Virus record (IMG/VR): IMGVR_UViG_3300045988_000102 | Coordinates: 1 to 5,660 of that record | Reading direction: 5' to 3' (one strand) | From: a virus | DNA length: 5,660 nt | Shown: piece after piece, positions 1-5,660 of the stretch | Layout: every line of letters begins with the position of its first letter | Position numbering within the stretch: the stretch's first letter is position 1 | Position numbers and translations under genes: made by a program | The notes under the pieces: generated by a model | What the model saw: only the letters and a program-made list of their open reading frames with translations | Told to the model about the DNA's origin: nothing | The model's database searches: none

Positions 1-111
1 CGTAAGAAGATGAACGGCGCAAAAGACCGCCGTATGTTCAACGTAACCGCACGCAAAACCAAAACTATCAACCTCAGCCAAAAACCCATGCGTGGGGGCA
101 TCCGGCTGTAA
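1..111 (+). CDS. 3' portion (codons 5-40 plus stop) of the small basic J/VP8-like protein. Duplicate of 5542..5652, truncated by the window edge.
   Basis: Same sequence and frame as the complete ORF 5530..5652, with TAA at 109..111. Confidence 0.6.
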   Translation, partial: RKKMNGAKDRRMFNVTARKTKTINLSQKPMRGGIRL

Positions 112-119
112 AAAAAAAG
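1..119. repeat. Terminal redundancy: exact copy of 5542..5660, the signature of a circular genome linearised with overlap
   Basis: Base-by-base comparison shows 1..119 identical to 5542..5660. The offset of 5541 nt is the unit genome length. Confidence 0.95.
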
Positions 120-129
120 GAGCAAAACA

Positions 130-369
130 ATGAAACACAACTATTACGGTATCTGGGACAATGTAGCAAAGTGCTATGCATGGGTAGGTGAAAACAAAAA
201 CGATGCAACCTTTGCAAGAATGTGCAACGTAATGGCAAAGGACGAAAAGACCTTCATCGGACAGAGCCCACAGGACTACATCGGGTACAAACTGGCAGAA
301 TTCGAGGACGAAACAGGACTTTTTCAGAACGGGAAAGAGAAAGTATGGGAGGGCAAGCCAAATGAATAA
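130..369 (+). CDS. VP5: Gokushovirus VP5-like small non-structural protein (79 aa)
   Basis: SD AAGGAG at 117..122 lies 7 nt before the ATG at 130. Size and position (directly upstream of the scaffold and capsid genes) fit VP5. The motif pattern also fits: an aromatic-xxxD N-terminus and ...PQDYIGYKLAEFEDETGLF..., resembling the P-x-DY...G-x-FD-x-x-TG signature as I recall it. The 3' end overlaps the next gene by 8 nt. Confidence 0.6.
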   Translation: MKHNYYGIWDNVAKCYAWVGENKNDATFARMCNVMAKDEKTFIGQSPQDYIGYKLAEFEDETGLFQNGKEKVWEGKPNE

Positions 370-772
370 ACGATACGAGGAAGGGCGTAAGCCCTTCTTT
401 TCAAATCCGGGTGAAAACGAACGGAAGCAATACGTTGTGGCAAAAAACGAAAACGGAGAAGAGTATCTGCAGGAAACCGAAAATATCGACATCCAAGCAG
501 AAATCGAAAGCTATGCAGACGAGTGCGACATTAAAAATATCGTGCGAAAAGCAAGTTTCGACCCGCAGTTTCTGAAAAGCCTGTCACAAGGCGCACTAAC
601 CACAGAGGAAACGCCTGTAACAGATATAACGGAATTTCCACAGAATATCCACGAATATCACCAAATGATGGCAACGGCACAAACAAAAGCAATGGAGCTA
701 GCAAAGCTGCAAGAGATGGCAAAAGCAGAGCCTAACCCGAAAACCGAAGTAAAGGAAGAAGAAATGGAATGA
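362..772 (+). CDS. VP3: Internal scaffolding protein, VP3-like (136 aa)
   Basis: GGAGG at 348..352 lies 9 nt before the ATG. The motif ESYADECDIKNIVRK resembles the conserved S-x-x-x-E-C-D-I-N-x-I block of gokushovirus scaffold proteins, and the C-terminus is acidic. The gene sits immediately upstream of VP1 and is coupled to it by an ATGA overlap. Confidence 0.65.
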   Translation: MNKRYEEGRKPFFSNPGENERKQYVVAKNENGEEYLQETENIDIQAEIESYADECDIKNIVRKASFDPQFLKSLSQGALTTEETPVTDITEFPQNIHEYHQMMATAQTKAMELAKLQEMAKAEPNPKTEVKEEEME

Positions 773-2463
773 ACAGAAACAATGAAAGACACTTTCTAAA
801 CGCGCCACAGATGCACACAAGCAGAACACGTTTTAACCGTGACCAAACAATCTTAACAACGTTCGACAGCGGGAAACTTATCCCGTTTTTCGTGGATGAA
901 GTATTGCCGGGCGACACTTTCCAAGTTGACACAAGCGCGATAATCCGAATGACTACTCCTAAATATCCGGTCATGGACGATGCTTTCATCGACTTCTACT
1001 ATTTCTACTGTCCAAACCGTATCTTGTGGACACACTTCAAACACTTCATGGGAGAAACTGAATACAAACCATGGGTGTACGATGAAGTAAAAAAAGTTCC
1101 ACAGATTGAAATCAGGGGCACAGAAGAAAAACCACAGCCTATAGAAAATTCAATCCTAGACTATATGGGCGTACCAACAAAAATCAAAGGCAAATTCCAA
1201 ATCAACGCACTGCCTATACGAGCATACGTGAGAATATGGAACGAATTTTTTCGTGACCAGAACGTAGACAACTGGGCGTGGTGGACTGATTTAGACGATC
1301 TAAAGCTTTATACAGACGATGGAGACACTTCAACAATGGAACAAATCCTGAACAGAGCGGAAGGCGGTGGACGATGCCTACCGGTAAACAAGTTCCATGA
1401 CTACTTCACAAGCTGTCTCCCATATCCGCAAAGAGGACCTGAAGTTACATTACCGTTAGCAGGAAATGCAGCGGTAAACCTGTTTAGCGACCAAGAGCTA
1501 ACAGAAAAAATGTCAACGAGCAACGATGGTGAAATCTACCTAAACAGCACAGTAACAGGAAATAACACATCGGTACCAATGATGTCAAACTGGCCAACCG
1601 CAGCAAATCCCGCGCATCCGGTTCTAGTAAACGGAGCAAAAAGCGATACAGACACAAGCGGATACCGTGCAGGATTCTTGGGTGCAGACCTAGCAAGTGT
1701 AACCGCAACAACAATCAACGACTTACGAAAAGCAGTAGCAGTGCAGCAGTATTACGAAGCGCTTGCAAGAGGTGGCAGCAGATACCGCGAACAGATACAG
1801 GCACTATGGAACGTCACAATCAGCGACAAAACGGTACAGATTCCCGAATACTTGGGTGGTGGACGCTACCACGTCAACATGAATCAGATTATTCAGACGA
1901 GCGGGCAGCAGAGCGCAACAGATACGCCCATTGGTGAAACTGGCGCAATGTCAGTAACACCGGTGAACGAAAGCAGTTTCACAAAATCGTTCGAGGAACA
2001 CGGCTTTGTAATTGGTGTTATGTGTGTACGCCATAGCAGAAGCTACCAGCAGGGGCTTGAGCATTTCTGGAGCAGGCTTGACAGACTCGACTACTACGTA
2101 CCGCAGTTTGCAAACCTAGGCGAACAACCGGTAAAGAAAAAAGAAATCATGATGACCGCAACAGCAACAGACGATGAAACGTTTGGCTATCAGGAAGCAT
2201 GGGCAGATTACCGGATGAAACCGAACCGTGTAAGCGGACTTATGAGAAGCAACGCAACGGGAACGCTAGACTTCTGGCACTATGCAGACAACTACGACAC
2301 GGTACCAACACTGTCGCAAGGTTGGATGAAGGAAGGGAAAGCCGAAATCGCAAGAACACTAATTGTGCAGAACGAGCCACAGTTTTTCGGAGCAATCCGA
2401 GTAGCGAACAAGACCACACGTTGTATGCCATTGTATAGCGTGCCAGGGCTGGAAAAACTGTAA
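769..2463 (+). CDS. VP1: Major capsid protein VP1 (Microviridae F-protein family), 564 aa
   Basis: Hallmark N-terminal block SRTRFNRDQTILTTFDSGKLIPFFVDEVLPGDTF. Conserved core INDLRKAVAVQQYYEALARGGSRYREQIQALW...IPEYLGGG. Length is typical of gokushovirus VP1. The start codon overlaps the VP3 stop (ATGA at 769..772). Confidence 0.95.
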   Translation: MNRNNERHFLNAPQMHTSRTRFNRDQTILTTFDSGKLIPFFVDEVLPGDTFQVDTSAIIRMTTPKYPVMDDAFIDFYYFYCPNRILWTHFKHFMGETEYKPWVYDEVKKVPQIEIRGTEEKPQPIENSILDYMGVPTKIKGKFQINALPIRAYVRIWNEFFRDQNVDNWAWWTDLDDLKLYTDDGDTSTMEQILNRAEGGGRCLPVNKFHDYFTSCLPYPQRGPEVTLPLAGNAAVNLFSDQELTEKMSTSNDGEIYLNSTVTGNNTSVPMMSNWPTAANPAHPVLVNGAKSDTDTSGYRAGFLGADLASVTATTINDLRKAVAVQQYYEALARGGSRYREQIQALWNVTISDKTVQIPEYLGGGRYHVNMNQIIQTSGQQSATDTPIGETGAMSVTPVNESSFTKSFEEHGFVIGVMCVRHSRSYQQGLEHFWSRLDRLDYYVPQFANLGEQPVKKKEIMMTATATDDETFGYQEAWADYRMKPNRVSGLMRSNATGTLDFWHYADNYDTVPTLSQGWMKEGKAEIARTLIVQNEPQFFGAIRVANKTTRCMPLYSVPGLEKL

Positions 2464-2473
2464 GAAAGGAGGA

Positions 2474-2503
2474 AGCCCGGGCAAAAACCCGGGCTATTTT
2501 TAA
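2474..2503 (+). terminator. Intrinsic-terminator-like hairpin between VP1 and VP2 (candidate attenuator)
   Basis: Perfect 8-bp stem AGCCCGGG (2474..2481) / CCCGGGCT (2488..2495) with loop CAAAAA, followed by ATTTTTAA (2496..2503). It begins 11 nt after the VP1 stop. Confidence 0.6.
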
Positions 2504-3349
2504 ATGTCAATACTAGGAACAATCGGAACAGCCGGAAAAGCGATAGGGGGCTGGCTTGCAAATAATCCACAAGTCGTAACAAGCGCACTGACACTGGCGG
2601 GAAAAGGACTATCAAGCCAATTCGGACAGAAGTCAGACAGCCAAAGCAGCGGATGGAATCAAAGCCAAAGCCAAGGCGCTGGCACAAGCTCGTCAAGCAG
2701 CGAAAGTGGCACAAACGACAAACAAATCATGGAATACCTAGATAGGTTCTATGGATGGCAAGGCGGGCAAAATGCTTTTCAAAGCAAAACAAACCGACAA
2801 AATATGCTTATGCAGATGGGCTACAACACACTAGGAGCTATCCAGCAAGGCGTATATAACGCAATAGAACGGAACACGGCAATGCAGTACAACAGCGCAG
2901 AAGCGCTTGCAAACAGGAACTTCCAAGAGCGCATGAGCAGCACAGCATACCAGAGAGCCGTAGAGGATATGCGGAAAGCCGGACTAAATCCGATTCTAGC
3001 ATACGCGCAAGGCGGTGCAAGCACACCGGGAGGATCAGGAGCAACAATCACAGGCGCGAGCATGGGAATGCCATCAGCAAGCGCACTAGGAGTATCTGCA
3101 ATGAGTGGCAATGTGCCGAACAGCTATTACAGCCGGTCAGAAAGTCAAGCACAATGGTATCAGCTTGCAGAAGCCGTGGGCAGTCAGCTAAGCACAAGCC
3201 ACAGCAGCCCAACAGCACTTGTGAACGACCTATTAAAAACGTACAACGCCATGGAAAAGACGGAAGCTACAGTACCAAGCATGGGCGGTGGAAAAGCCGG
3301 CGGTGGAGCAGGCAGAAAAAAGAAAGGACAGGGAGGTGGAGGATACTAA
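2504..3349 (+). CDS. VP2: Minor capsid / DNA pilot protein VP2 (281 aa)
   Basis: Gly-rich hydrophobic N-terminus MSILGTIGTAGKAIGGWLA. S/Q-rich low-complexity linker. Conserved block ERMSSTAYQRAVEDMRKAGLNPILAY, typical of gokushovirus VP2. Gly/Lys-rich C-terminal tail. An in-frame TAA immediately precedes the ATG, so no upstream start is possible. Confidence 0.9.
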   Translation: MSILGTIGTAGKAIGGWLANNPQVVTSALTLAGKGLSSQFGQKSDSQSSGWNQSQSQGAGTSSSSSESGTNDKQIMEYLDRFYGWQGGQNAFQSKTNRQNMLMQMGYNTLGAIQQGVYNAIERNTAMQYNSAEALANRNFQERMSSTAYQRAVEDMRKAGLNPILAYAQGGASTPGGSGATITGASMGMPSASALGVSAMSGNVPNSYYSRSESQAQWYQLAEAVGSQLSTSHSSPTALVNDLLKTYNAMEKTEATVPSMGGGKAGGGAGRKKKGQGGGGY

Positions 3350-4369
3350 ATGAGTTGTTACAAGCCATTAATAAGGCTGTACAACCCGAACAATAAAGAA
3401 GTAAGCGGGAGAGTATATTCACTCTCCCGCTATTCTCAGTTAGCAGGGAAACAGCTAAAATATGAAGATTTGATGTACAGAAAAGATGTCATGTTGATAC
3501 CATGCGGACAATGCATCGGATGTAGAATCAGACAGCGCGAGGACTGGACAACGCGCATAGAACTGGAAGCTAGAGATTATCCGAAAGAAGAAGTATGGTT
3601 TATTACACTAACCTATGATGACGAACACGTGCCGGGAATGATAGTCAAGACAGGCGAAATCATGCGAAAGGTTCAATACGTTTGGAAGCCGGGTGAAAAG
3701 CGTCCTGAAAGCGTCCAAACGTTGCTGTATACTGACGTTCAAAGATTCTTAAAACGTCTCAGGAAGGCTTACAGGGGCAAATTACGCTATTTCGTAGCGG
3801 GAGAATACGGAGAGCAGACAGCAAGACCGCATTACCACATGATACTGTATGGATGGCGACCGACAGACCTAGAGAATCTATACAAGATACACCACAACGG
3901 ATACTATACCAGTAAATGGCTAGTAGACCTATGGGGCATGGGTCAGATACAGATAGCGCAAGCAGTGCCGGAAACATATAGATACGTTGCAGGATATGTA
4001 ACCAAAAAAATGTATGAAATAGATGGAAAAAAAGAGAATGAATATTATGAACTAGGACAACAAAAGCCGTTCGCTTGTATGAGCCTTAAACCGGGTCTTG
4101 GAGATAACTATTACCAAAAAAACAAAACAAAAATCTGGAAACAAGGATACATCCAGTGTACAAACGGAAAACACGCACAAATACCGCGCTATTACGAAAA
4201 AATGATGGAAGCCGAAAACCCACAAAGATTGTGGAGAATTAAACAGAACAGACAAGCAGCAGCAATAGATGCAAACCGTAAAAGATACGAAAACACAGAC
4301 TTTGCAGAGCAATGTAAGACGAAAGAAAGAGTAATCAAAAAGCAGATGAAGAAGAGAGGGACACTTTAA
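3350..4369 (+). CDS. VP4: Replication initiator VP4 (HUH rolling-circle endonuclease, phiX174 A-protein family), 339 aa
   Basis: Motif I FITLTY. HUH motif PHYHMILY, with HYH encoded at 3830..3838. Double-tyrosine catalytic motif YVAGYVTKK (Tyr codons at 3983 and 3995), compare phiX174 YVAKYVNKK. Cys cluster CGQCIGC. Tandem GGAGG SD ends 7 nt before the ATG, and the ATG directly abuts the VP2 stop (TAAATG). Confidence 0.93.
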   Translation: MSCYKPLIRLYNPNNKEVSGRVYSLSRYSQLAGKQLKYEDLMYRKDVMLIPCGQCIGCRIRQREDWTTRIELEARDYPKEEVWFITLTYDDEHVPGMIVKTGEIMRKVQYVWKPGEKRPESVQTLLYTDVQRFLKRLRKAYRGKLRYFVAGEYGEQTARPHYHMILYGWRPTDLENLYKIHHNGYYTSKWLVDLWGMGQIQIAQAVPETYRYVAGYVTKKMYEIDGKKENEYYELGQQKPFACMSLKPGLGDNYYQKNKTKIWKQGYIQCTNGKHAQIPRYYEKMMEAENPQRLWRIKQNRQAAAIDANRKRYENTDFAEQCKTKERVIKKQMKKRGTL

Positions 4370-4387
4370 CAGTGCCATGGTGTCACC

Positions 4388-4430
4388 TAGCCCAGTACCT
4401 ATCAAGTAAAGGTACTGGGCTATTAGTTTA
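4388..4430 (+). terminator. Strong hairpin after VP4: likely the main transcription terminator, alternatively an ssDNA structural element
   Basis: Perfect 12-bp stem TAGCCCAGTACC (4388..4399) / GGTACTGGGCTA (4411..4422) with an 11-nt loop, followed by T-containing TTAGTTTAT. It begins 19 nt after the VP4 stop. Confidence 0.6.
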
Positions 4431-4484
4431 TCAAGCGTGCAAAAACGCTATTATATAACTTGTTGTAGCCGTAGTAGTAGGGAA

Positions 4485-4659
4485 TGTGGAAAAGTTGAAA
4501 AACAATAAAATTTAACGTTAAAGCGTAAATAAAAGAACAAAAAACATGTTGAAAATATTGTTAATAAATTGTTGAAATGTTGAAAGTTAGTCAAAATGAC
4601 GAAAAACATTGTGCAATATTTTGTGGAAAACCTGTTGAAACTGTTGAAACTGTTGAAAA
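4485..4659 (+). repeat. Array of eight same-orientation 9-mers TGT(T/G)GAAAN (iteron-like / DnaA-box-like)
   Basis: Copies: 4485..4493 TGTGGAAAA, 4547..4555 TGTTGAAAA, 4570..4578 TGTTGAAAT, 4578..4586 TGTTGAAAG, 4622..4630 TGTGGAAAA, 4633..4641 TGTTGAAAC, 4642..4650 TGTTGAAAC, 4651..4659 TGTTGAAAA. There is also a partial copy AGTTGAAAA at 4493..4501. All lie in a non-coding region. Confidence 0.85.
4632..4658 (+). repeat. Perfect tandem repeat (CTGTTGAAA) x3
   Basis: Read directly: 4632..4640, 4641..4649 and 4650..4658 are identical 9-mers with no spacer. Confidence 0.95.
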
Positions 4660-4733
4660 CGCGCAAGCGCGCAAGGAATGGATTTAGCCGAATTCCGCTG
4701 CGCTCCATACGGCAAGGCGCTAAAGCGCCATTC
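4660..4733 (+). promoter_or_regulatory. GC-rich structured island directly after the iterons (candidate origin or primosome-assembly element)
   Basis: Tandem CGCGCAAG x2 (4660..4675). Imperfect palindrome AGCcGAATTCcGCT (4686..4699). Hairpin GGCGC-TAAA-GCGCC (4716..4729). Alternative long-range pairing GAATGG (4676..4681) / CCATTC (4728..4733). The island stands out sharply from the flanking A-rich sequence. Confidence 0.45.
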
Positions 4734-4751
4734 AAAACAAAAGAAAAAAAT

Positions 4752-4780
4752 TTGACAACGCCAAAAAAGGATGGTAAAAT
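4752..4780 (+). promoter_or_regulatory. Near-consensus sigma70-type promoter with extended -10
   Basis: -35 TTGACA (4752..4757), 17-nt spacer, TGg extended -10 (4772..4774) and -10 TAAAAT (4775..4780). An A-tract at 4735..4750 resembles an UP element. The expected transcription start is near 4787. Confidence 0.6.
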
Positions 4781-4806
4781 CAAAAATAGAAAGCGAGGTG
4801 AACAGA

Positions 4807-5199
4807 ATGATAAAAAGCTATATCATGGACACAGACGCAAACGAAAAAGTTGGACAGCACTTCAAAGTAAAAGAATTTGCTTGTAAAGACGGTTCTCAAG
4901 TGGTATTCATAGACGACCATTTAGTATCAATTCTGGAAATCCTCAGAAATCAAATCGGAAAACCGGTACACATAAACAGCGGTTACAGAACACCGACAAG
5001 AAACAAAGAAGTAGGAGGTGCAAAATACAGCTATCACATGAGAGGTATGGCAGCTGACATCAGGGTAAACGGCATGAACGCAAAAGAAATTGCCAACAAA
5101 CTAAATGCAATTGTGTCGCCGGATGAATGCGGTATCATCGTATACAAAAGCTGGGTGCACTTAGACACTAGATACAAAAAATACAGAAAGGGGGTTTGA
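4807..5199 (+). CDS. Zinc D,D-/L,D-peptidase of the M15 type (Peptidase_M15_3-like, LAS fold), a candidate peptidoglycan hydrolase/endolysin. 130 aa from ATG 4807; the ORF is open from ATG 4771 (142 aa).
   Basis: Motifs FKVKEFACKDG, INSGYRTPTRNKEVGGAKYSYHMRGMAADI and WVHLDTR give an H-x6-D...H-x-D zinc-ligand pattern (numbering from ATG 4771: His89 codon 5035..5037, Asp96, His130). Start 4807 is preferred because AGGTGA (4796..4801) lies 5 nt upstream. ATG 4771 lies inside the predicted promoter and its only SD-like match (AAGGA) directly abuts the ATG, with no spacer. Confidence 0.8.
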   Translation: MIKSYIMDTDANEKVGQHFKVKEFACKDGSQVVFIDDHLVSILEILRNQIGKPVHINSGYRTPTRNKEVGGAKYSYHMRGMAADIRVNGMNAKEIANKLNAIVSPDECGIIVYKSWVHLDTRYKKYRKGV

Positions 5200-5201
5200 A
5201 A

Positions 5202-5306
5202 ATGGCACTAGTAAGCCTGAAAGACATCAAACAGGCAATCGCAGTAATGCGGGAGATTCTCGAAAAACTGGATGAAATTTACCACGTACTGCACGACAAG
5301 AGCTAA
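5202..5306 (+). CDS. Hypothetical 34-aa protein (MALVSLKDIKQAIAVMREILEKLDEIYHVLHDKS)
   Basis: Not in the ORF track because it is too short. SD AAGGGGG (5188..5194) lies 7 nt before the ATG at 5202, inside the 3' end of the peptidase gene. It exactly fills the gap between two genes. Translation suggests an amphipathic helix with no transmembrane segment. Confidence 0.4.
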   Translation: MALVSLKDIKQAIAVMREILEKLDEIYHVLHDKS

Positions 5307-5321
5307 GAAAGGAGAACAACA

Positions 5322-5546
5322 ATGATGAAATCATGGAACGTACGAGACCAGACCAGAGAAGCTCTTGAAGAGCTTCTAACACGCAAATACAAAGAGATAG
5401 ATGGCAACTACAGTATGATGAAAAAGGTCTCAAACATCAACGATGCAAAGAAGCTGCTAGATGAAATTTGGCAGATGAAGAGCTTTGCGAAAGCAATCGA
5501 AATAGAAATCATCAGAAGGGAGTACAGCGATGGCACAGCATCGTAA
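5322..5546 (+). CDS. Hypothetical 74-aa protein, charged and probably helical, no recognisable family
   Basis: SD AAAGGAG (5308..5314) lies 7 nt before the ATG. Same strand as, and packed against, its neighbours. The 3' end overlaps the J-like gene by 17 nt. Confidence 0.55.
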   Translation: MMKSWNVRDQTREALEELLTRKYKEIDGNYSMMKKVSNINDAKKLLDEIWQMKSFAKAIEIEIIRREYSDGTAS

Positions 5547-5652
5547 GAAGATGAACGGCGCAAAAGACCGCCGTATGTTCAACGTAACCGCACGCAAAAC
5601 CAAAACTATCAACCTCAGCCAAAAACCCATGCGTGGGGGCATCCGGCTGTAA
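5530..5652 (+). CDS. Small highly basic DNA-binding/packaging protein (phiX174 J / gokushovirus VP8 / SpV4 ORF8 analogue), 40 aa
   Basis: Hand translation gives MAQHRKKMNGAKDRRMFNVTARKTKTINLSQKPMRGGIRL, with 11 K/R against 1 acidic residue. SD AAGGGAG (5516..5522) lies 7 nt before the ATG. The C-terminal RGG-basic-hydrophobic ending resembles the SpV4 ORF8 tail as I recall it. Stop TAA at 5650..5652. Confidence 0.7.
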   Translation: MAQHRKKMNGAKDRRMFNVTARKTKTINLSQKPMRGGIRL

Positions 5653-5660
5653 AAAAAAAG
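5542..5660. repeat. Second copy of the terminal redundancy (identical to 1..119)
   Basis: Exact 119/119 identity read directly from the sequence. Confidence 0.95.

Follow-up and report, generated by a model that had tools for sequence, protein, structure and literature searches.

A single-domain M15 zinc peptidase of endolysin type in a gut gokushovirus-like microvirus clade without a visible route to the cell wall

Genes for zinc peptidases of the Peptidase_M15_3 family were found in 2012 by Roux et al. in five gut Gokushovirinae and six Alpavirinae, together with a horizontal origin, an affinity to Faecalibacterium and holin neighbours in prophages, and an endolysin role was proposed for them (PMC3394797). 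Later surveys describe peptidases as typical lysis-associated accessory genes of microviruses (PMC9239249, PMC11499846), and M15 peptidases are encoded by cultured microviruses, namely roseophages (PMC11499846) and the Bacteroides phage phiHBP1 (PMC13064476). The peptidoglycan hydrolase Gp7 of the Rhodobacter microvirus Ebor has been shown to be active (mBio 2025); it was seen in trace amounts in purified virions, and Ebor also encodes a membrane protein of 45 amino acids (aa) (PMC11980548). LysPM1, from the Proteus phage Homer, is a 116-aa single-domain Peptidase_M15_3 endolysin that is experimentally Zn-dependent (PMC13461873). Here we describe a 130-aa peptidase of this family (M15A/LAS), encoded at 4807..5199 on the + strand of a 5,660-nt stretch of viral DNA (IMG/VR record IMGVR_UViG_3300045988_000102, positions 1 to 5,660), which is referred to as a whole as the window. 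The gene lies between VP4, with its stop at 4369, and a J-like gene at 5530. It resembles the gut Gokushovirinae and Alpavirinae peptidases in family, virus group and the slot after VP4. Compared with the gut Gokushovirinae enzymes it shows no difference of substance, and the window is a further member of that group.

GenBank relatives are annotated in the same sense, KX513868 ('Human gut gokushovirus') with a 'peptidase M15' and MG945334 and MG945383 with 'similar to peptidase'. The literature and GenBank annotations thus already cover the peptidase, its acquisition by horizontal transfer and a probable part in lysis; an initial annotation of the window, made from the sequence alone, had rightly called the novelty partial, a caveat that was itself too mild. 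A literature search returned no paper that tested a gokushovirus M15 peptidase or that explained how it crosses the membrane. The present analysis adds a clade-wide check for holins, a corrected start codon and the conservation of the promoter. Our reading is that the gene probably specifies a conventional zinc muralytic peptidase for host lysis, which would be made together with the structural proteins and would reach the wall by a holin-independent route.

The predicted protein matched Pfam PF08291 (Peptidase_M15_3) with E=1.8e-23 (83.2 bits, cut-off 23.2), the alignment spanning positions 2-108 of the 108 in the profile, and PHROG 894 ('endolysin') with E=1.6e-41. The Zn DD-peptidase of Streptomyces albus (1LBU) was matched at E=1.5e-5 with the single sequence and at 2.7e-9 with a profile. 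In the numbering of the 130-aa form, which starts at ATG 4807, the SGYR motif holds R61 (codon 4987-4989), and this residue aligns with the GFR of 1LBU, where R138 is the substrate-carboxylate arginine, and with R47 of LysPM1. The SxHxxGxAxD motif, as defined in PMC13461873, reads S75-Y-H77-M-R-G80-M-A82-A-D84 and provides a His and an Asp zinc ligand, H77 (5035-5037) and D84 (5056-5058). The (W/F)xH motif and the acidic residue after it form W116-V-H118-L-D120, in which H118 (5158-5160) occupies the position of the third zinc ligand and D120 is encoded at 5164-5166. R61, H77, D84 and the W116-V-H118-L-D120 stretch were invariant in an alignment that included bacterial homologues at 38-50% identity, and D84 was kept at 90% or more in a second alignment. 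Together with W116-x-H118, these residues match R47, H63, D70, F102-x-H104 and D106 of LysPM1 one-to-one and at equal spacing, as illustrated by H77-H118 and H63-H104. The likeness to LysPM1 and to the endolysin of the Faecalibacterium phage FP_Toutatis extends to the size class (116-130 aa) and to the single catalytic domain. The M15-type zinc peptidase with SGYR, SxHxxGxAxD and HxD motifs that the initial annotation had recognized was confirmed by the Pfam match over the whole profile and by the invariant residues. Its description of the function as uncharacterised was too strict, given that family members such as LysPM1 have been tested (PMC13461873) and that a microvirus hydrolase, Ebor Gp7, is active (PMC11980548).

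An AlphaFold model of the peptidase, computed from a shallow alignment, reached a pLDDT of 71. Its best matches in the PDB were VanY, VanXYc, 1LBU, ShhN (the Hedgehog N-domain), LdcB and ChiX, all of which we take to be LAS-fold proteins; these matches were weak (E ~4e-3, TM score 0.45-0.53). Viral models labelled 'Peptidase M15A', several of them from microviruses, were matched with E=9e-11 and a TM score of 0.65. The LAS-type fold expected in the initial annotation may thus be present, as suggested by weak matches to VanY, VanXYc and 1LBU from a model of that confidence. Cellular enzymes of the VanY, VanXYc and 1LBU type probably share the LAS / Hedgehog-DD-peptidase fold and the zinc ligands with the window peptidase, but they are distant (17-29% identity) and serve wall metabolism or vancomycin resistance, and their specificity may not carry over.

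The gene is therefore described here as encoding a compact, single-domain LAS/M15 zinc peptidase of endolysin type whose predicted catalytic residues are intact. The protein consists of the bare catalytic domain, without any extra segment, and the comparison of peptidases revealed no microvirus-specific residue pattern that would hint at a changed substrate. The C-terminus, KKYRKGV, is conserved and cationic. It was considered as a membrane-active feature and rejected, since the ribosome-binding site of the next gene, O36, overlaps it and is the better explanation of its conservation. This site, AAGGGGG, lies within the last peptidase codons and accounts for the conserved RKGV. The peptidase stop and the O36 start are 2 nt apart, and O36 is apparently translationally coupled to the peptidase.

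Neither a signal peptide nor a signal-arrest-release (SAR) segment was found in the peptidase. Its N-terminus, MIKSYIMDTDANEKVGQHFKVKEFACKDGS, is hydrophilic, the first 30 residues are hydrophilic with many charged residues, and the most hydrophobic stretch is the internal VVFIDDHLVSILEIL, which includes charged residues. The three + frames of the whole window were then read from stop to stop for transmembrane segments, with a threshold of 1.6 on the Kyte-Doolittle (KD) scale averaged over 19 residues. No segment reached it, the best value being 1.26. In 83 relatives, the same frames contained no conserved hydrophobic segment at KD 1.6, and the only hydrophobic segment to recur, in a small number of genomes, was the N-terminus of VP2, which is rich in glycine. 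An overprinted open reading frame (ORF) of the phiX174 E type, with an N-terminal transmembrane helix, was likewise absent from the three + frames of the window and of the 83 relatives. The initial annotation had noted a peptidase without signal peptide or SAR-like N-terminus in a genome without a + strand transmembrane ORF; both statements hold, and the second extends to the relatives. An endolysin without a visible route to the wall would thus be a genuine trait of the whole clade, not of this genome alone.

Two kinds of candidate were rejected in this search. The + strand consists of 37.6% A, 23.9% G, 20.5% C and 18.0% T, and the minus strand is accordingly 38% T. Owing to this strong base asymmetry every minus-strand ORF of the window appears hydrophobic, which is a trap for membrane-protein searches. 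A minus-strand holin, either as a 110-aa ORF (4451..4783) or as a 52-aa form from ATG 4609, would terminate exactly at a conservation boundary. It was dismissed: the form from ATG 4609 lacks a Shine-Dalgarno sequence, measures only 34 aa in one relative (L051) and has lost its ATG in another (L076), and the hydrophobicity arises because the strand is T-rich. The + strand ORF 4596..4886 (96 aa) was also dismissed. The conserved N-terminal part of this ORF merely translates repeated DNA, and beyond it the frames are no longer alike; an inverted copy of the non-coding element A (described below) would also interrupt the ORF.

The initial annotation had placed the peptidase gene at 4752-5199, and the window also contains a longer ORF form at 4771..5199 (+). 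However, a sigma-70-type promoter-like site (4752..4780, +) begins with its -35 hexamer at 4752; it combines TTGACA, a 17-nt spacer and TAAAAT with a TG extension and matches the consensus at 11/12 positions, and ATG 4771 falls within the -10 region. Comparison with relatives identified ATG 4807 as the conserved start. A Shine-Dalgarno sequence, GAGGTG (4795..4800, +), can be read directly 6 nt before it, and similar GAGG boxes are present in the relatives. The true start predicted from this comparison is ATG 4807, neither 4771 nor 4752.

The promoter-like site is the only one above 9/12 in the genome, in line with the claim of a single clear promoter followed directly by the peptidase. It is kept at 10/12 or better, ~55 nt 5' of the peptidase start, in 44/84 genomes; the remaining genomes, about half, carry an extra small hydrophilic ORF between the promoter region and the peptidase. 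In the window, the peptidase is predicted to be the first gene after the conserved main promoter. This promoter appears to drive a single genome-length transcription unit, which would run from 4752-4780 round to a hairpin after VP4. Transcription in phiX174 is constitutive and is not known to have early and late classes. If transcription is untimed here as well, promoter proximity predicts dosage rather than timing, and the 'unexpected timing' that had been attributed to a promoter-proximal lysis enzyme loses its basis.

The distribution of the gene was assessed in relatives that were picked by VP4 alone and restricted to circularly closed genomes (n=43). All 43, with lengths of 5,557-6,053 nt, contain the full peptidase gene. 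In the window, 1-119 is an exact copy of 5542-5660 (119 nt), and the window is therefore a circle of 5,541 nt whose ends overlap in the assembly. This is the smallest genome of its clade, and it falls inside the published size range of 4.3-6.3 kb (PMC9865509). The proposal of a ~1.15-kb insertion that enlarges the genome is contradicted by these figures, and also by the content of the 1.15-kb interval, which is largely non-peptidase and comprises two conserved small genes and ~440 nt of conserved non-coding elements. Several relatives (MG945200, L130, L132, L146, L152 and L162) had seemed to lack the peptidase or to truncate it. They were rejected as deletions and are regarded as assembly breaks, because they are linear or partial contigs that end in or beside the gene.

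A scan for the peptidase itself found 80 microvirus-sized contigs with proteins 73-92% identical, and the peptidase cluster nearest to the window protein is 95% identical. The order VP4, gap, peptidase, O36, O74, J, VP5, VP3, VP1, VP2 is kept in ~65/80 contigs. The median ratio of nonsynonymous to synonymous substitution rates (dN/dS) of the peptidase was 0.107 at dS ~1.1, as compared to 0.128 for VP3 and 0.057 for VP4. By these measures, the peptidase is fixed across the clade and evolves under purifying selection like the core genes. A second lineage, in which VP1 is only ~40% and VP4 ~37% identical, bears a peptidase that is 74-92% identical. In this lineage (L050, L056, L067, L070, L094 and others), the region corresponding to 4806-5208 of the window shows 88.6% nucleotide identity over 403 nt, with protein identity of up to 92%. 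This pattern indicates recent exchange of the peptidase gene between distant microvirus lineages, and module exchange of such a kind has been reported in microviruses before (PMC9239249). In two further genomes (L143 and L147), whose VP4 is 90% identical, the same slot holds a peptidase allele only 49-53% identical, which retains the C-terminal KYRKGV and the O36 junction. Allele replacement at a fixed site is suggested in these two genomes.

Outside the microviruses, the closest homologues of the peptidase (42-49% identity) are overwhelmingly from Clostridia, namely Lachnospiraceae, Lacrimispora, Faecalibacterium and Oscillospiraceae. The homologue of phage FP_Toutatis, at 45% identity, is annotated as an endolysin. 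In Clostridia genomes, a holin gene (phrog_199 or phrog_443) adjoins the peptidase homologue. These comparisons support a horizontal ancestry for the peptidase, whose probable nearest kin are endolysins of Clostridia prophages and phages, as the suggested capture from a host or another phage would have it.

The search for a host covered 185,579 species genomes. When these were scanned with a VP1 profile, all of the nearest integrated relatives (39-46%) fell on large Clostridia contigs; only the profile scan succeeded, and a single-sequence VP1 scan of the same genomes found nothing. The most conserved 20-mer had no exact match in them, and a search with the arms of the hairpin after VP4, allowing a free spacer, gave 114 scattered hairpins that were uninformative for the host. 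A Firmicute host would be consistent with the strong Shine-Dalgarno sequences that precede nearly every window gene and with the TG extension of the -10. A host within the Clostridia is probable.

The first report of microvirus prophages in isolates of Firmicutes dates from 2022 (PMC9239249). Oscillibacter sp. PC13, an isolate (NZ_FOXE01000003; L187 4700-9956), carries a 5,225-nt microvirus prophage with the order VP4, J, peptidase (48% identical), VP5, VP3, VP1, VP2 and a 42-aa transmembrane ORF. It is bounded by 32-nt palindromic direct repeats and lies beside an xer-like recombinase gene. This prophage and another one (L177, 5777-10865) are complete gokushovirus-like prophages of ~5.0-5.2 kb in Clostridia, with palindromic direct repeats of 32-37 nt. 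Such a layout, next to an xer-like tyrosine recombinase gene, is as expected for elements that would integrate at dif-type sites. Three prophages in Clostridia metagenome-assembled genomes (L167 5589-5927, L168 5546-5887 and L177 5800-6210) encode, beside the J-like gene, a protein with an N-terminal transmembrane segment that matches holin families (phrog_6918; PF09682 Holin_LLH, 25.6 bits, cut-off 24.9). No endolysin was detectable in these three holin-bearing prophages, which mirrors the arrangement in the window.

The preferred reading of the peptidase as a lysis enzyme draws on the family match, the LysPM1-like residues, the fold, the fixation and selection in the clade, the holin-linked Clostridia homologues and the literature. 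In the proposed mechanism, the peptidase would be a soluble, cytoplasmic, zinc-dependent enzyme with which a gut gokushovirus-like microvirus lyses its host. Provided that transcription has no timed classes, as in phiX174, it would be made alongside the structural proteins through the whole expression period. It would build up in the cytoplasm and, after failure of the membrane barrier, would cut peptide stems in the wall. It would reach the wall without a holin, most plausibly by way of a membrane lesion or a lost membrane potential caused by another viral product, or by unconventional host export. The candidate products for breaching the membrane are VP2, with its glycine-rich hydrophobic N-terminus, and the partners O36 and O74. 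Several points weigh against this reading. No export signal, holin, SAR domain or other coding-strand transmembrane ORF offers a route to the wall, whereas tailed-phage endolysins are partnered by a holin and, in Gram-negative hosts, by spanins. The M15 family spans DD-, LD- and L-Ala-D-Glu peptidases, and the cleaved bond is not fixed by the family. The structural model has only moderate confidence (pLDDT 71), the host assignment is circumstantial, virion-associated lysins of tailed phages can likewise contain M15A domains, and traces of Gp7 were seen in Ebor virions.

These last two observations would fit an entry enzyme, of which a few virion-borne copies open the wall locally for DNA delivery by the pilot protein. 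A virion enzyme requires no holin, the wall of the inferred Clostridia host would be thick if Gram-positive, and in tailed phages M15A domains reside in very large tail-associated proteins. Here, however, no segment for capsid anchoring accompanies the catalytic domain, and the protein has the architecture of free endolysins adjoining holins; stoichiometric incorporation is shown neither here nor in the cited papers, and a release mechanism would still be lacking. The comparison with Ebor Gp7 concerns a microvirus accessory gene for a wall-degrading enzyme, but one that differs in lineage and host. The best profile match of Gp7 is PDB 6SSC (PMC11980548), and searches of PDB sequences with the window peptidase did not return 6SSC. 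We consider a role in entry unlikely.

The absence of a holin and of an export signal in 118 genomes would also be explained if the cytoplasmic peptidase destroyed wall precursors (UDP-MurNAc-pentapeptide, D-Ala-D-Ala or lipid II stems), upon which growing cells would lyse. Such single-gene lysis would resemble that by the protein antibiotics phiX174 E, Q-beta A2 and phage M Lys, but by catalysis instead of inhibition. The likeness to phiX174 lies in microvirus lysis by apparently one dedicated gene; E itself is a membrane-anchored, overprinted, non-enzymatic inhibitor of MraY, and the window has no comparable ORF. VanY and VanXYc, among the best fold matches in the PDB, act on such precursors, and constant expression from the main promoter would suit slow depletion. 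Yet holin-linked endolysins share 42-49% identity with the protein, whose active-site residues all match those of a conventional endolysin. In tailed phages, such peptidases build up in the cytoplasm and are not known to cause premature lysis, an argument against efficient depletion of precursors. The lack of a microvirus-specific residue pattern, together with the explanation of the conserved RKGV by the O36 ribosome-binding site, further makes this mechanism distinctly unlikely. Lastly, a canonical holin-endolysin pair could be present if the holin had been overlooked because it is very short, weakly hydrophobic, encoded on the minus strand or overprinted. Related prophages do encode membrane proteins (the 42-aa transmembrane ORF after VP2 in PC13 and the three holin-family matches), as does Ebor with its 45-aa protein, and the minus-strand ORFs of the window are hydrophobic. 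However, the three + frames of the 83 relatives lack a conserved segment at KD 1.6, the minus-strand hydrophobicity follows from 38% T, the ATG 4609 candidate is not conserved as an ORF, and the small accessory ORFs of the relatives are hydrophilic. An overlooked holin is thus very unlikely.

All recognisable genes of the window lie on the + strand, as judged from the ORF list and from Pfam and PHROG profile matches. VP5 (130-369; PF20577), the VP3 scaffold (362-772; PF09675) and the VP1 capsid protein (769-2463; PF02305, E=1.4e-128) are followed by a terminator-like hairpin after VP1 (2474-2495, terminator scan), the VP2 pilot protein (2504-3349; phrog_8742) and the VP4 replication initiator (3350..4369; PF23343, phrog_942), which is the upstream neighbour of the peptidase interval. 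The 40-aa J-like basic protein (5530..5652; phrog_10695, E=9.9e-12) extends into the terminally repeated 119 nt, and 10..111 represents this same gene. The gokushovirus-type set of VP1, VP2, VP3, VP4 and VP5 on a single strand of a small circle is therefore complete. GenBank whole-genome relatives, at 72-81% nucleotide identity, are named 'Gokushovirinae sp.', 'Human gut gokushovirus' and 'Microviridae sp.' and come from faeces of pig, human and monkey; the GenBank taxonomy assigns relatives to the Gokushovirinae. By gene content and these relatives, the window is classified as a gokushovirus-like gut microvirus genome.

Downstream of the peptidase, O36 (5202..5306, +) encodes a helical, acidic protein of 34 aa without a transmembrane segment. 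It is syntenic in most relatives, with a dN/dS of 0.12, and is present in the divergent lineage too. O74 (5322..5546, +) encodes a hydrophilic, helical protein of 74 aa, supported by synteny and a dN/dS of 0.17. Neither protein had a match in Pfam or PHROG. Both genes follow the peptidase in nearly all relatives, and both are under purifying selection.

Upstream of the promoter, a hairpin with a 13-bp stem (4388..4422, +) lies directly 3' of the VP4 stop. It was identified by DNA folding, is found in 102/103 window-like genomes and holds the most conserved 26-mer of the genome (70/118 relatives). This hairpin probably marks the end of the transcription unit; it could instead be an origin or a recombination site. 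Its loop reads ACTTGATA on the minus strand, the same 8-mer as in the phiX174 origin core, and its two inverted arms resemble the dif-like repeats that flank the related prophages.

The hairpin is followed by element A (4449..4652), a non-coding stretch of ~205 nt with GTTGAAA repeats and short palindromes, which occurs in either orientation in relatives. The genome contains seven GTTGAAA heptamers, all on the + strand with starts at 4494-4652; six are inside element A and the seventh runs across its right edge. Element A is 72-91% conserved and is flanked by GC-rich palindromes. It is reversed in place in 7/100 close relatives (L076, L081, L054, L099, L104, L128 and L145), and in 13 genomes of the divergent lineage (L050, L067 and others) it is reversed and relocated between VP2 and VP4. 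Our guess is that it serves as a replication origin or as a protein-binding array functional in either orientation. Element B (4655..4750, +), directly 5' of the promoter, contains GC-rich hairpins such as GGCGCTAAAGCGCC. Its orientation is constant, and it retains 80-94% nucleotide identity even where VP1 is only ~40% identical. An Rfam search of the window, element B included, gave no match. In relatives (L081, L054, L099, L104, L091, L056 and others), small hydrophilic ORFs of 50-75 aa and of varied kinds occupy the slot that separates element B from the peptidase. These belong to at least 11 unrelated families, often with a near-consensus promoter of their own, and the slot looks like a hot spot for accessory genes.

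As a discovery, the locus carries little weight, since the literature and GenBank already describe such a gene, acquired horizontally and probably used in lysis. What remains is a testable question: strong selection maintains an endolysin in a whole abundant clade of gut microviruses that has no holin, signal sequence or E-like protein. The peptidase gene, at 393 bp, could show whether a cytoplasmic endolysin lyses the cell alone, and the Clostridia link might supply a host system for experiments on these otherwise uncultured viruses, given that one cultured Oscillibacter strain contains a prophage with the peptidase. It is a doubtful but conceivable extension that the clade lyses Clostridia, probably of Gram-positive type, by its cytoplasmic endolysin alone, through a mechanism undescribed for any phage, be it a non-holin breach by VP2 or O36/O74 or the destruction of precursors. 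If this were true, the prophages that carry only a holin would suggest that small-genome phages split two-component lysis, with the host supplying the other half.

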